A stretch of DNA of 44,234 bases from Bacilli bacterium (GTDB lineage: Bacteria > Bacillota_I > Bacilli_A > ML615J-28 > CAG-313), in the NCBI GenBank assembly GCA_045612145.1, contig JAZKYN010000113.1:1-44234 (forward strand), in the 5' to 3' direction. The notes beneath the pieces were generated by a model. That model made no database searches and had not been told where the DNA came from. It saw only the letters and a program-made list of their open reading frames with translations. The stretch's first letter is position 1. Each line of letters starts with the position of its first letter. Below, one piece after another: positions 4,005 through 35,877 of this stretch. A program made the position numbers and the translations under genes.

Positions 4005-7000
4005 ATGAACGAAACTGCTATTGTATATATTGTTCACTCAGACTTAGATGAAAATAATATTTTCGCAATGTTTGAAGATGAAGTAGAAGCAATTATGTAT
4101 GCTAGAAGACATAAAGAAGATTTAACTTATGTCGACAGAACTGAAATGACTTTAGATGAATCAGGTGACTATGACGAAGTTCTTAGTGCTGAAACTATTT
4201 GGGTTTATGATGAAGATGTTGATCCAGAAGACATTGAAGACACACCTGAATTATCTGATGAAGAATTATTTAATATTGATTTCGATGAACTTGAAAAATC
4301 ATTAAATGATGAAGATGATACTACTTGGTTTGAAGATCTTGATACAGATAAATTAGTAGAAACATTAGAAGAAAATGAAGACATCGTTGAATGTAAAGAA
4401 TGTTTTGAATTATTCCCAAAAGAAGCTTGTACTAAAATCGCGATTGGATATATTTGTCCAGAATGTGGCAAGATTCACAGTCATGAAGAGTCAGAATTCG
4501 AAATTGATTCAATTCCAGATGTGTTAATTGCTGATGAAGATACTTTTAAGATTGATTTTCCAGAATTAGAAAGAACTGATTATGGAAATGACATGATTCC
4601 AGATGAACCAACACCAGAAGTTGAAAACGATCCAATTTCAGAACCAGAATGTGTAGGTCCTGAATGTGAAGCACCAGTCGAAGCTCCTGTTACTAAAGAT
4701 GAAACTATTACTAAATTAGTAGTTGATGAACATGAAGCTATCGATGGTTATGAGAAAGCTAAAATCGAAATTGAAGCAAATTCAGAATTAGATGAAAAAG
4801 AAAAAGAAGAAATTCTTGATACTATTGAACATATTAAAGAAGAAGAAATCGAACACATCGAAGAACTTGAAGAGTTGGTTGATGAAGTAGAAGAAACTAA
4901 AGAAGCTGATGAACCTGCTGAAGAGTCTGAACCAGAAAAGCATGAAGTTTTAACTGAAGCTCCTAAATATCCACCACTAGCGGGTGAACAAACTAAGTTA
5001 GATATTTTATTTAGTAACAAAGAAAGTAAGTCTAAAGAAGAAGGAAAACCTCTTTATGGTAAGGGTTATAAATTATGTATTTATGACTATACACAGAACA
5101 ATAATGGTAGTTTTGGAATTAAAGATATTGATACTGAATGAGATAGCTATAATCTTAGTAACATCGAAAATGAATATCCTGAAATTGGAGCAGCTAAAAA
5201 AGATGCAGAAAAACTTTCGAAACAGTTAAAAGATGAAACTATTGGCATTTATATTATTGAATATAAAGGAACAAATCATCCGTATCTTTATTTATTTGAA
5301 GATGGAAAACAAACTAAAACATATGCTAAAGACAAGATAGAACATTTCGAGAAAGAATTTGATAAACATACTACATCTACTAAACAAAAAGAAGGTGAAC
5401 AACAAGAAAATTCTACAAAAGCTTCTACAACAACTTGGACTTTTGTTAATCCAGAAGTAGAAATTAAAGTTGGTACTAAAGGTGGAGAAGCTTCAGTTGC
5501 TATCAAAAAAGGTACAAACCTAGCAGAAAAAAAAGACTTGGAGGGTGTAATTTTTGCTTTTAAAGCAGTATCAGATTTAAAATCAACAGACTCAAAAGTT
5601 GTTAAAGTTAGTGACATTATTAAGACAAAAAACGAAATGGGTAATGTTAACCTTAGCGTAGATAAGAACTATTCTAACTTGACTACTGAAAGTAAAGAAA
5701 AACTTGCTGATGGGGTTACTCTTTATATTACTGTTAAAGAAGGTGGTAGTACTTTTACTAAAGCAAAGTGTACAGTTAAAGTAGTTGAAGCAACAGGCCA
5801 AACTGTTAAAACTAAGAAAGAAGAAGACCCTCCTGTTGGAGTCACTAAAGGACCAACACCTGAACAACTTAAAAGTGCTTACAGACTATTAATAGCTCTT
5901 TTAGGAACAAGTGCTAAAGCAGCAGAATACATTACTGTAGAAGGTAGAGGTAAAAATATTACATATTCTTTAGCTCAAGATATGAATTTTAAGGATGTTA
6001 CAGAGGTGATCAAAAACCTTCAAAAAGATAAATTAGGTGAATCTTTAACAGAACACATTAACGAAGAACATCCAGCTATTGAATCAGATCAAGTTTTAGT
6101 GGGAACTGATAATGCAGTAGTTGACTGCAAAATAAATAAAGTAATTTCTCACAGCGAAGATGAAAAACCAGTTGATTGTAAAGGTGAAAAGAAACCGCTT
6201 AAAAAACCATTAACTGAAGCTTTAAGTGAAGATCAACTTCGAGTAATGGAAGAATACTTAAAAGCCGCTAAATTCAATTCATTAGAAACTGAATGGACAG
6301 ACGAAGGTAATTTTTATATTGATGAATGTAATGCTTACTTAGATTATAATACTAAAACTAATAAATTTGAATTAGGACTTTCTATTTATCATGCTAGTGA
6401 AGATAACAACGCTGAGTATCCAGAAGACAACACTGATGAAGAAGAATTTACTTATGACTCTTTAGCAGAAATGTATGAAGATGAAGAATGTAAAGAAATC
6501 TTAGATATGTTGTATGAAGAAAACGAGCATGACTTTACTGAAAGTTTAACTGAAGAGACTCACGCTAAATATGCTAAACCAGAAGGTAATAGAGTACAAG
6601 CTTATAACAATGCATTAAAATATGCTAAGAAAGAAAACAAACCATTCATTTATGGTTATTCCCAAATGGGTGATGGTAAATTCTTCGCGCTAGAACAACC
6701 AATTAAAGTTTCTAGTACACCAGCAGAAGCTGAAAAAGAATTTAAGAACAGACACAAAAGATGTTCTGTAGTTTATATGGTATATCCAGATAAAGACTTT
6801 GTTACTGAAGGATTATTCACTAAACAAGAACAAGAAGAATATAACATGGATGAAGATGGAAATTCTTTAGACAGTTATGATACATATATTAGATGTGGAT
6901 TCTGTGATGAAATCTACACTAAATCAGAATGTAAGTATGAACGTAACTTAGGTTGGTTATGTCCAAGCTGTGAAGCTGCTATTTATTCTCGTGGTGAAAA

Positions 7001-7040
7001 ACTTACATTTGTTGACCCAGATGAATTTTTAGAAAATTAA
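4005..7040 (+). CDS. Large acidic multi-module protein, 1011 aa, putative internal head protein (one TGA=Trp at 5139)
   Basis: Track ORFs 4005 and 5538 are in frame with only TGA 5139 between them; CxxC zinc ribbons; ferritin-like EHEAI..YE/EEIEH segment; recurrent LTE/LVE sites. Confidence 0.8.
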
Positions 7041-7053
7041 TATTGTATATTAT

Positions 7054-7175
7054 ATTGAGCTTGACAAAAGCTTAATGCGCCTCAGGTTAATCTGAATGCA
7101 AACTCATTTTAATAGAACACTAGCTGAGCTGATAGGACAGACTTGGCTAGTGTATAAAAACTAATAGGATAGGAG
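7054..7175 (+). promoter_or_regulatory. Structured 5' leader of the 7186 gene
   Basis: Hairpins ATTGAGCTT/AAGCTTAAT and ACACTAGCTGAG/CTTGGCTAGTGT; two small hairpins with the identical loop ATAGGA (7129-7140, 7161-7172). Confidence 0.5.
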
Positions 7176-7185
7176 AACATTTAAA

Positions 7186-7653
7186 ATGAAATTTTACTCA
7201 GAAAAACTTAAAAAATTATTTGATACAGAAAAAGATTTAGTCGCAGCTGAAAAAGTTGTAGACGAAGAAAACGAAAAGAAAAAATTAGCTTCAGAACAAA
7301 AGAAAGAAGAAGCTAGTAAAGTAGAAGATGCTTTCAAAGCACGTAATGCAGCAAGACGTGAATACAACACTAAATTAGTTGAAGCACGTAAAATTTATAA
7401 CGATGCGATCATTGCTGCTAAGAGAACATTTAATGAAACTTTAACTTCAGCAACTGAAGCTAAGGATAAAGCTGAAGAAGCTTATAATGTCGCACTAAAA
7501 GAATTCACAGCAAAATACGAATCTTATCACATGACTTTAAAAGACGGTGACAATGTTGTTACTATTTCTAATGCAAGTGATAAGAATTTCGAAACAATGG
7601 GAAAAGAATTCAATAGTTTTTTAGACTCATTATTAAATATTTGGAAACTTTAA
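7186..7653 (+). CDS. Coiled-coil hypothetical protein
   Basis: AGGAG RBS; A/E/K-rich helical sequence. Confidence 0.8.
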   Translation: MKFYSEKLKKLFDTEKDLVAAEKVVDEENEKKKLASEQKKEEASKVEDAFKARNAARREYNTKLVEARKIYNDAIIAAKRTFNETLTSATEAKDKAEEAYNVALKEFTAKYESYHMTLKDGDNVVTISNASDKNFETMGKEFNSFLDSLLNIWKL

Positions 7654-7715
7654 TTTAATTTAAAAAAACTGAGGCAAATTGATTAAAATATCCAAACCAA
7701 TATCGTATAATATTA

Positions 7716-7819
7716 TAGAGGATGTAAAAACCTCTAATTCATAGTAGATAACTTCGGTTATCGTTTCCTCCTTTCAGCAGTGGTAATCTAATTCCTCCTA
7801 GACTATCACTGTTTTTTTT
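7716..7819 (+). ncRNA. Putative ~100-nt small RNA with two anti-Shine-Dalgarno motifs
   Basis: TATAAT at 7706; hairpins TAGAGG/CCTCTA and GATAAC-TTCG-GTTATC; TTCCTCCTTTC single-stranded; terminator stem with ATTCCTCC loop then a T-run; no ORF. Confidence 0.7.
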
Positions 7820-7898
7820 ATTTTCCAAAACACGTCGTTTTCATATTTACATTTTTTGATAAATAAGTTATAATTATAATGTAAGGAGACGTGATAGT

Positions 7899-8090
7899 AT
7901 GGCAAAGAAAGTTTATACAGTTCAACCAAAGAAAGATAAAAGTGTAATTAAGTTTACTTTAAAAACTGAATTACATAAACTTCCAAATAAATTACATTTG
8001 GATGCACAAATTAATTATCCTGCTAGAGTTCATGAAGATAAAAGATACAAGAAACCAAAGCATAAGGGTAAAATTTACAATGACGACTAA
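7899..8090 (+). CDS. Small basic protein with an ArfA/BrfA-like C-terminus
   Basis: 63 aa, Lys-rich, ends RVHEDKRYKKPKHKGK; own promoter and AGGAG RBS; family assignment is by eye only. Confidence 0.6.
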   Translation: MAKKVYTVQPKKDKSVIKFTLKTELHKLPNKLHLDAQINYPARVHEDKRYKKPKHKGKIYNDD

Positions 8091-8159
8091 ACACGTCAGT
8101 TTTCATTGTACTTTTTATCTTATTTAATTTATAATATAATTAATCAAGGGGGAATCTTT

Positions 8160-8549
8160 ATGAGAACATCGGAATTTAAGGGAATTAAAACTATTTTAAA
8201 TAAATATATTAGTCAATCTACCTCAATAGCAGAATTATGTGTAGTAAATGATGAGATTACTTTTGATCATCTTACTATTGGACAAGTTAAAGACTTAACA
8301 GAGAAAGCTAGAGATTTACAAAGTAAAACTGATACATTTTTAAAAGACGAACTTTATCATATTATAGGTATGGGTAATTTATCTGCGTCACAAACTGCAA
8401 CTTTAAATAAACTAGTAAAAGATATTACAGTGCATCGTTCTGTAGTTAAAGCTGTAGCCGGACTTCCAACATTACCAACTAAAATTAGTTCAGTTTCAAA
8501 ATATAAATCGAAAACATTTGGATTTGCTTTACATTCAACTAATGTTTAA
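8160..8549 (+). CDS. Hypothetical protein
   Basis: Promoter plus AGGGGG RBS favour ATG 8160. Confidence 0.75.
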   Translation: MRTSEFKGIKTILNKYISQSTSIAELCVVNDEITFDHLTIGQVKDLTEKARDLQSKTDTFLKDELYHIIGMGNLSASQTATLNKLVKDITVHRSVVKAVAGLPTLPTKISSVSKYKSKTFGFALHSTNV

Positions 8550-17507: not shown

Positions 17508-17614
17508 TGAAAAGAATCCCCTCGTGGAAAAGCTATTAACCACGGTCATCAAAACAAATAGCAAAACTTTAATGAAAATAGTTAAAATTTTATTTTGACT
17601 ATTGTATAATATAA

Positions 17615-17820
17615 TGTAAGTCGGAAACGATTTACAACCCACCTCCTTTCACGAAGATACTCCTCCGTATCTTCCACACCAGTATCCACCAAACTAACAC
17701 CCCCTTTCTTTCACCTCCTTTTGGATACGAAAACTTTATAATAAGATGGCAAGTTTGGTTAGCGTCATCAACTCCCTTTCTTTTTTTTGTTGGATATGCT
17801 GAATAAGCATATCTTTTTTT
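17615..17820 (+). ncRNA. Putative ~205-nt small RNA with five anti-Shine-Dalgarno motifs
   Basis: TATAAT at 17605; 5' hairpin TGTAAGTCG-GAAA-CGATTTACA; CACCTCCTTTC 17640, TCCTCC loop 17661, CACCCCCTTTCT 17698, TCACCTCCTTTT 17711, ACTCCCTTTCT 17771; terminator 17793-17820. Confidence 0.8.
17793..17820 (+). terminator. Intrinsic terminator
   Basis: GATATGCT-GAATA-AGCATATC followed by T7. Confidence 0.85.
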
Positions 17821-17861
17821 ATTATCGTATAATATAATAGACTACCTATGGGGGATTTTTT

Positions 17862-35049: not shown

Positions 35050-35104
35050 AAAAATACGTCAGTAATTACTTTACAAAATAAAAATAATATTGTATAATAT
35101 ATAT

Positions 35105-35737
35105 GTAAGGTTGATAAGGATGAGCTTACGAGAGGGCACAAGAGTATACGGCATCGTAAGAAACTTCACAATTGTAAAAAGATTCCGCGTCCGGCTCTGA
35201 TGCGATAAGTCTTACCTTACTTAATATATCTTCTGTGTAAAGAGTTTATTATTATATATAGTAAATTGTTTAGGCCGAAGATATACGTGTCGAGGCGTAT
35301 TTATAGCTCAATACACTACTGTTGTATAACAGCAAATATTGAATACTATAATGGAGCAAGGGTAGCGTCAGCGGCGCAAGTTTGCAGGTAGCATGTAGGA
35401 GAAACCTGAAGTATTAGATAGGAAGTCCGGAGCCGACAAGTGGTGTGAGTCCACTTCTAATGCGATACCATATCACCAACCCCTGGTGGGCAAGAGCGTA
35501 GTTCATTGTGTGGTTCAATTCCACAGTGGTGCCGTCTGAACAACGAGAGTTCAAAACACAAATAGTTTAACGAGGCATGTAAAGTCCTACGTCGTAGTTT
35601 GGGGCCTAAGAAGTAGTTGCAAATACTTCGTGTTAAACTTAACTTTGAGGATTACTTGTTTATACTTGTTTCATATATTTACTCCTTTCTGCGGCGAAAG
35701 CCATAAATTAGACATTCTATATTAGAGTGTCTTTTTT
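35105..35737 (+). ncRNA. Large (~630 nt) structured non-coding RNA with two tRNA T-arm-like elements
   Basis: Own ACGTCA promoter (TATAAT 35093) and terminator (35710-35737); no ORF; raised GC; helices 35105-11/35214-20, 35125-31/35154-60, 35225-33/35277-85, 35564-71/35632-39; T-arms 35438-56 and 35509-25; GGC-GAAA-GCC. Confidence 0.8.
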
Positions 35738-35877
35738 ATTTGTACGTCAGTTCAAACTTTACTTTGAGATATATTTATTATATAATTATATTGTGAGTAG
35801 CTATTATTGTATAAAAAATGTAAAAGTTTATTGTATAATATTATGAATGCAAAGTAAAGCAGTAGGAGGTATTCAAT

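Follow-up and report, generated by a model that had tools for sequence, protein, structure and literature searches.

The small-RNA gene described here lies on the + strand at 7716-7819, in a 245-nt gap between an ORF of 155 aa (7186-7653) and one of 63 aa (7899-8090). The window analysed is the whole of contig C113, 44,234 bases in length, which belongs to a MAG of 1.69 Mb in 165 contigs that is 88% complete and is without a 16S gene. The long ORFs of the contig are nearly all on the + strand (40 of 42), and most of its proteins belong to no recognised family. Those with a family are an anaerobic ribonucleotide reductase of the NrdD type, a Dam-type methylase and pieces of a helicase, all of which match PHROG, and these phage matches make the contig look like part of a large phage that was binned with the MAG. 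Relatives are contained in bovine gut runs, and the shares of sampled words in runs X1-X24 are all small (<= 0.24).

The 63-aa gene downstream has its own promoter after the small-RNA terminator, with 11 of 12 consensus matches. Its basic product yielded no Pfam or PHROG family at E <= 0.01 and no NCBIfam family at E <= 1, and the name "ArfA-like", given to it in a previous sequence-only reading of this DNA, finds no support in any of these profiles. The protein is without a relative in IMG/VR, and four rumen metagenome contigs (L031-L034) supplied all the relatives that were found.

Twenty-four stereotyped promoters of the form ACGTC(A/G)-N9-TTTAC-N18-TATAAT are spread over the window from 7832 to 35744. 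Each is followed by a short leader beginning near TGTAAG and by a strong SD, and they thus constitute a promoter class private to the phage.

Anatomy of the small-RNA gene

The interval 7716-7819 was confirmed as a genuine small-RNA gene. A promoter precedes its three hairpins, the last of which is a U-tailed terminator, and a transcript is predicted from it. The features generally expected of an sRNA gene are present, namely an own promoter, an intrinsic terminator, a covarying structure and the absence of an ORF. The promoter (7683-7711) reads TTAAAA-17 nt-TATAAT, extended as TATAATATTAT, with the TATAAT at 7706-7711 and 10 of 12 consensus matches. Its -10 element, TATAATAT(T/A)ATAG, is identical across the five close copies of the locus described below. 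The promoter is of the type TTAAAAT-N16-TATAATATWAT, which is common to the promoter at 17605 of another CU-rich RNA, and the ACGTCA/TTTAC elements that mark the 24 stereotyped promoters are missing from it.

Upstream of the promoter lies a conserved box, AAACTGAGGCAAA (7666-7678, + strand), which has 0-1 change in L031-L034 while the stretch between box and -10 varies. It is possibly a regulator site or an UP-like element. The box was also considered as a repeated promoter element of the window, and this was not clear: six matches at <= 2 mismatches were found in the window against 1.98 expected, and 2 of 100 shuffles reached six. In one RNA-library contig (record 10 of X16) the letters of 7610-7698 are exchanged for 99 others and the alignment resumes at 7699, 7 nt 5' of the -10, which shows the spacer upstream of the small-RNA promoter to be exchangeable among relatives.

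The likely transcript start coincides with a 5' hairpin, HP1 (UAGAGG...CCUCUA, 7716-7736), which is seen in the folds. It is followed by the unpaired block AUUCAUAGUA (7737-7746), which lies within an invariant block (7733-7746) and is complementary to the start-codon context UA(U/C)UAUGAA(U). The middle hairpin, HP2 (GAUAAC-UUCG-GUUAUC, 7747-7762), is a proposed structural spacer at a three-way junction; its UUCG loop is not kept in relatives. An unpaired linker, GUUUCCUCCUUUC (7763-7775), forms the anti-SD block, and the 38-nt terminator hairpin (7776-7813) displays a second anti-SD motif in its loop, AUUCCUCC (7791-7798). The U-run of the terminator (7812-7819) consists of eight T 3' of the stem, on the + strand only, and 7-8 T are kept in relatives. 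The terminator hairpin was missing from a simple terminator scan because its stem has an internal mismatch, and the call draws on the fold together with covariation. The elements picked out in the sequence-only reading (TATAAT at 7706, 5' hairpin, UUCG hairpin, unpaired linker and TTCCTCC terminator loop) are thus all in place.

None of 200 shuffles was as stable as the window RNA, for which folding gave an MFE of -26.6 kcal/mol (z -3.86). Both promoter and terminator were seen on the + strand alone. Two RNA-library contigs span the locus (7318-8051 in X16 and 7000-8302 in X17), and these may be DNA carry-over or read-through.

Copies, covariation and recurrence of the motif

Six copies of the RNA are at hand: that of the window, those of L031-L034 and one on G019:C46, a phage-like contig of another MAG. 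Scanning metagenome contigs with the 63-aa gene product as anchor returned five loci (L031-L035). In L031-L034, with protein identities of 97, 88, 67 and 67%, the RNA element lies just upstream of the 63-aa gene and synteny with both neighbour genes is kept. The fifth locus, L035, is without the RNA, and its match to the 63-aa protein extends over no more than 26 residues. A covariance model, R1, built from the window and L031-L034 sequences, found the sixth copy at 7907-8030 of G019:C46 with 36.9 bits. The RNA is accordingly present in 2 of 49 genomes of the family and in 2 of 106 of the host order, in both cases on phage-like contigs, and the flanks of the copy on G019:C46 are unlike those of the window copy.

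The contig G019:C46 has 45,303 bases and stems from a MAG of another genus in the same family. Its predicted genes with a good SD are all on one strand (67 on +, 0 on -), its start-site consensus is as in the window phage, and it uses the SD forms GGAGGUAA and GGAGGAAA; its sRNA linker has UUACCUCC in place of UUUCCUCC.

Folded individually, all distinct copies adopt the same set of three hairpins (z -3.9 to -5.6). When the six sequences, five of them distinct, were aligned (A3), 91.8% of cells were paired and 19 of 29 pairs changed on both sides, figures that are generous since the family is small and the fitting of A3 to the model works in favour of high pairing counts. None of 500 shuffles reached any of the five measures applied to A3, slid structures gave 35-52% pairing, and a plain MAFFT alignment already held 15 compensatory pairs of 29. 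Changes on both sides were distributed over all stems: 4 of 7 pairs in helices 1-2 (HP1), 6 of 8 in HP2, the sequence of which is replaced per lineage with pairing retained, and 9 of 14 in the terminator (helix 4), where 95% of cells are paired.

While the stems are rewritten, the unpaired blocks UUCAUAGUA, (U)UCCUCCUUUCAG and the terminator-loop UUCCUCC are fixed. The five close copies have identical blocks, UCUAAUUCAUAGUA and UUCCUCCUUUCAGCAG, and the 16-mer TTCCTCCTTTCAGCAG of the linker is likewise identical in them. The distant copy on G019:C46 retains UUCAUA, the linker ACCUCCUUUCAG and the loop AUUCCUCC, and UUCCUCC in the loop is the same in all six. These observations bear out the proposal of a stand-alone structured RNA with two anti-SD displays, in linker and terminator loop, which is both conserved and covarying. 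The invariant UUCAUAGUA block, complementary to the start-codon context, is a new observation that was absent from the sequence-only reading.

The RNA is a previously uncatalogued, conserved phage sRNA family. No match to Rfam 15 was obtained with cmscan over the whole window at gathering score, and at E <= 10 the interval 7600-7950 gave chance-level matches only (for example rli48, 19.3 bits against a cut-off of 100), with no LhrC among them. A blastn search of the INPHARED phages with 7600-7950 gave no match, and an exact 29-nt pattern had none in IMG/VR. The 16-mer TTCCTCCTTTCAGCAG matched 20 times in IMG/VR, always in SD regions of opposite-strand genes or in coding sequence and never in the context of this RNA. 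The looser pattern CCTCCTTTCAG-N8-25-TTCCTCC matched 13 times in IMG/VR and at least 119 times in genome contigs, with no homologue among the loci listed: of the 93 listed and scored with R1, none fell below E 0.1, and the best (L096, 20.9 bits, E 0.12) was not homologous by eye. The genome-contig pattern with TTCATAGTA had no matches. None of the 15 IMG/VR loci with a relative of the 155-aa protein (28-70% identity in partial alignments) carries such an RNA (best R1 score 16.4 bits, E 0.19), and a DNA search of the 49 family genomes returned short AT-rich or promoter-like matches only.

The CU-rich motif is overrepresented in the window, and its occurrences are concentrated. On the + strand CCTCC is found six times against 2.0-2.6 expected, and five of the six fall in two short non-coding loci (7767 and 7794; 17642, 17662 and 17714). 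TTCCTCC occurs twice against 0.20-0.25 expected and CCTCCTTTC twice against 0.01 expected. A recurrence of the motif in three non-coding RNAs had been claimed, and this holds for the CCUCC clusters at the 7716 and 17617 loci; the third motif, ACTCCTTTCT at 35681-35690, lacks the CCUCC core.

The second cluster belongs to another CU-rich RNA candidate, at 17617-17825 (z -3.73). As had been proposed, its scaffold differs from that of the 7716 RNA, and no homology was found: R1 gave only 8.2 bits (E 6.3), at 17579-17674. The display logic is nevertheless common to both, with CCUCC in one hairpin loop and in open stretches, and the promoter type is also alike.

A large non-coding stretch lies at 35100-35740 behind the stereotyped promoter at 35056, and it matched no Rfam family, whether at gathering score or with the threshold relaxed to E <= 1. 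Towards the 3' end of this large RNA, the third motif together with its 5' neighbour (35669-35690, UUUCAUAUAUUUACUCCUUUCU) reads as a contiguous antisense of an entire start site, comprising SD, 8 nt, AUG and AAA, and the minus strand there holds a 4-codon frame only. As judged from its letters, this stretch would fit the idea of an anti-start-site RNA.

Complementarity to start sites and proposed action

Nine nucleotides of the linker, CCUCCUUUC, are identical to the 3' tail of 16S rRNA, which ends in GGAUCACCUCCUUUCU in a genome of the same genus. The start sites of the phage conform to the consensus GGAGG(A/G)AAA, short spacer, A(U)UAUGAAA, as obtained by aligning 66 start sites that were hand-picked from 89 ORFs, the other 23 being left out for a weak SD score, a non-ATG start or nesting. 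The block UUCAUAGUA is complementary to UA(U/C)UAUGAA, the start codon plus its surroundings. Its mean over the 66 start windows was -4.75 kcal/mol, compared to -1.74 +/- 0.68 for shuffles, none of 1000 of which was as good. Shuffles that keep the CAU reached -2.66, with none of 500 as good, and internal gene windows gave -2.56. The divergent copy on G019:C46 behaves alike, in that its own block beats 495 of 500 shuffles, and the start contexts of the two phages are identical.

When the whole RNA was co-folded with start regions, a three-way junction was predicted in which the linker lies on the SD, the block on the AUG, and HP2 remains intact. For 45 of the 66 sites the MFE dimer has 6 or more pairs in each arm, and the full AUG is paired in 43 of 66. 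The best predicted ddG values are -22.8, -22.3 and -21.0 kcal/mol, for genes 27465, 9762 and 30946, respectively. Co-folding the divergent G019:C46 RNA with genes of its own contig predicts this junction as well. Shuffling the block in the window RNA lowers bipartite pairing from 23 of 42 sites to 2-16 of 42. Since the sequence of HP2 is replaced per lineage and its position kept, the hairpin makes sense as a spacer.

The predicted partners are not evenly distributed. Genes immediately downstream of the stereotyped ACGTCA/TTTAC promoters have a mean ddG of -14.5 (n=21) compared to -11.1 for the others (n=45; p = 0.001). The classes are set by promoter motif alone, and to call the former "early" is an assumption. 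With one start-prediction method for both, phage starts averaged -11.2 (n=42) and host starts -7.7 (400 of 1493 sampled; p = 1.2e-5), and the predictions contained a bipartite dimer for 23 of the 42 phage starts and for 140 of the 400 from the host. Within GGAGG+ATG starts the difference was small: the dimer was predicted for 12 of 17 in the phage and 42 of 83 in the host, with a ddG of -13.5 versus -11.1 (p = 0.04).

SD usage differs as well. The match of the motif to GGAGGAA(A), which had been pointed out from the letters, stands: this SD form is found at 11 of 42 ORF starts on the contig (26%) and, elsewhere in the MAG, at 4.5% of 1493; for GGAGGAAA the corresponding shares are 21% and 1.8%. 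Read from the sequences, on GGAGGAAA(C) the sRNA could add 3-4 pairs beyond those available to the 16S tail (...CACCUCC). In these predictions the fit appears best for the 21-gene promoter class of the phage, yet it would not be phage-specific, as host start sites are predicted to pair as well.

The hypothesis that we consider best in accordance with these observations, at a probability of roughly 0.55, is that of a trans-acting phage repressor of translation initiation that would cover SD and AUG, with the stereotyped gene class of the phage as its best-fitting target. An independently transcribed phage small RNA of ~104 nt would base-pair across whole ribosome-landing sites and block translation initiation. 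The linker UUUCCUCCUUUC would pair with the Shine-Dalgarno sequence, best with GGAGGAAA(C), and the block UUCAUAGUA with the start codon and its context UAUUAUGAA. HP2 would remain folded between these arms, such that the three-way junction covers SD, spacer and AUG. The UUCCUCC of the terminator loop would probably make the first (kissing) contact, or else hold a second mRNA as in LhrC. The mRNAs that may be hit in vivo would be above all those of genes behind the ACGTCA/TTTAC promoters. Since the RNA matches a consensus start site and not one gene, it should act on many mRNAs, and since its promoter is of a different type from that of the target class, a temporal shut-off of that class is suggested. 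A point counter to this hypothesis is that the repression of dozens of mRNAs would need a very abundant RNA.

One may speculate further, and only tentatively, that the RNA is a "universal anti-start-site" riboregulator which copies the reading heads of the 30S subunit, namely the 16S anti-SD tail and a CAU resembling the anticodon of the initiator tRNA, with a covarying hairpin that sets the distance between them. Together with the 17617-17825 RNA and the anti-start-site at 35669-35690 it would silence at least 21 of the phage's own mRNAs of one promoter class at a set time.

Other functions may be assigned to the same RNA. Identical pairing would serve host shut-off if the RNA competed with ribosomes for host SD and AUG regions early in infection. 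The linker corresponds to a host-type 16S tail over 9 nt, and the 140 of 400 sampled host starts that give a bipartite dimer, 21 of the 400 being at ddG <= -15, speak for this possibility. Host shut-off nevertheless seems unlikely: on average the fit is better for start sites of the phage itself, a generic blocker would hit the strong SDs of the phage too, and the UUU that precedes CCUCC on its 5' side fits GGAGGAAA, a form rarely used elsewhere in the MAG (1.8%) but frequent on the contig (21%). It is improbable that the RNA instead acts as a decoy for a protein or nuclease with specificity for CU-rich RNA or the 3' tail of 16S rRNA, for instance a defence toxin that inactivates ribosomes or a regulator that binds RNA. 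The identity of CCUCCUUUC to the 16S tail, the display of the motif twice in open positions and the second, unrelated CU-rich RNA with three CCUCC at 17617-17825 would all suit a decoy, but the invariant UUCAUAGUA block and its significant complementarity to the start context would be left unexplained, and no candidate protein partner was identified.

The element might also act in cis, either as a 3' UTR of the 155-aa gene that folds on its own SD, in an icaR-like manner, or as a leader or attenuator of the 63-aa gene. There is no terminator from the stop at 7653 to 7776, so upstream transcripts should carry the element, and the synteny with both genes in L031-L034 would be in line with such a role. 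Several observations make a cis function quite improbable, though. The -10 of the RNA is invariant, and the variant contig with 7610-7698 replaced realigns from 7699, 7 nt before it; the 63-aa gene has its own 11/12 promoter past the terminator; and the flanks differ in G019:C46. Both neighbour genes are also poor predicted partners, ranking 47th (7186, ddG -9.7) and 57th (7899, -8.3) of 66, which argues against a purely cis role.

That the locus has no RNA function at all, being a plain terminator with chance CU-rich motifs or a set of minus-strand micro-ORF RBSs, is extremely unlikely. An AT-rich genome and the frequency of hairpins between phage genes would speak for it, but the motif counts are far above expectation and all three stems covary alongside invariant loops. 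The alternative considered in the sequence-only reading, that the motifs are RBSs of translated minus-strand micro-ORFs, fails. Of 11 minus-strand GGAGG sites in the five distinct copies, only 3 are followed by a start codon at a distance of 3-13 nt; these three lie outside the window and are not conserved, and 40 of 42 long ORFs are on the + strand.

Relation to known regulators

The closest analogue is the LhrC1-5 family of Listeria monocytogenes, to which the 7716 RNA does not belong. Three parts of LhrC, namely loop A, the terminator loop and a single-stranded stretch, carry a redundant CU-rich motif by which the SD region of lapB is bound, and one LhrC RNA may hold several mRNAs (PMC4132741). 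Both RNAs are ~100 nt in length, and according to the same source text each site is able to bind the G-rich SD of a target, blocking translation (PMC4132741). The 7716 RNA shows the redundancy of the LhrC type, given that UUCCUCC is invariant in both linker and terminator loop in all six copies. The LhrC covariance model, however, was matched neither by the window at gathering score nor by 7600-7950 at E <= 10, and the UCCC core of LhrC is absent from the window RNA, where the motif is UUCCUCC. The motif UUCCUCC(UUUC) is a full copy of the 16S tail and not CUCCC/UCCC, and further peculiarities of the 7716 RNA are its anti-start-codon block, which is invariant, and the three-way junction proposed for it. 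The RNA is also phage-borne and single-copy, and its match is to a consensus start site and not to individual genes.

Pairing with the SD through an unpaired C-rich motif, placed in a loop or linker, is likewise known from Firmicute sRNAs, among them RsaE/RoxS, the RNAIII hairpins, SprD and FsrA (named in PMC4132741; see also PMC2790875). These RNAs differ in that they are chromosomal or island-borne and combine short UCCC seeds with gene-specific flanks. The c4 antisense RNA of P1/P7 resembles the 7716 RNA in being a phage RNA, with complementary sequences likely in loops, that blocks a ribosome-binding site. It differs in having one dedicated target (ant) in its own operon, while the match of the 7716 RNA is to a generic start site that dozens of genes share (both points on c4 from PMC12197685). 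The phage sRNAs listed in the accessible part of this 2025 review are mostly those of prophages with single targets (PMC12197685), and a study of a lytic Listeria phage, in its available text, sought phage sRNAs of the UCCC type and found none (PMC12282133). In the full-text literature we found no phage sRNA aimed at a consensus SD-plus-AUG site, a provisional result with supplements and subscription journals outside its scope.

The sRNAs of virulent or large phages are little known. If the proposed model holds, a phage would switch off a whole gene class with an RNA of ~100 nt, by a compact natural start-site-blocking design in which two seeds flank a structural hairpin, and a family supported by covariation would be added to the catalogue of RNAs from phages of rumen bacteria. 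In T4, the protein RegA is a translational repressor of many early mRNAs, and the nuclease RegB cuts GGAG in early SDs. The action proposed for the 7716 RNA would resemble that of RegA and RegB in that a phage factor ends the translation of its own early-message class through start sites or SDs. RegA and RegB are proteins, whereas the 7716 RNA would work by base-pairing, and the more tentative universal anti-start-site riboregulator would, if true, constitute an RNA counterpart of T4 RegA/RegB.
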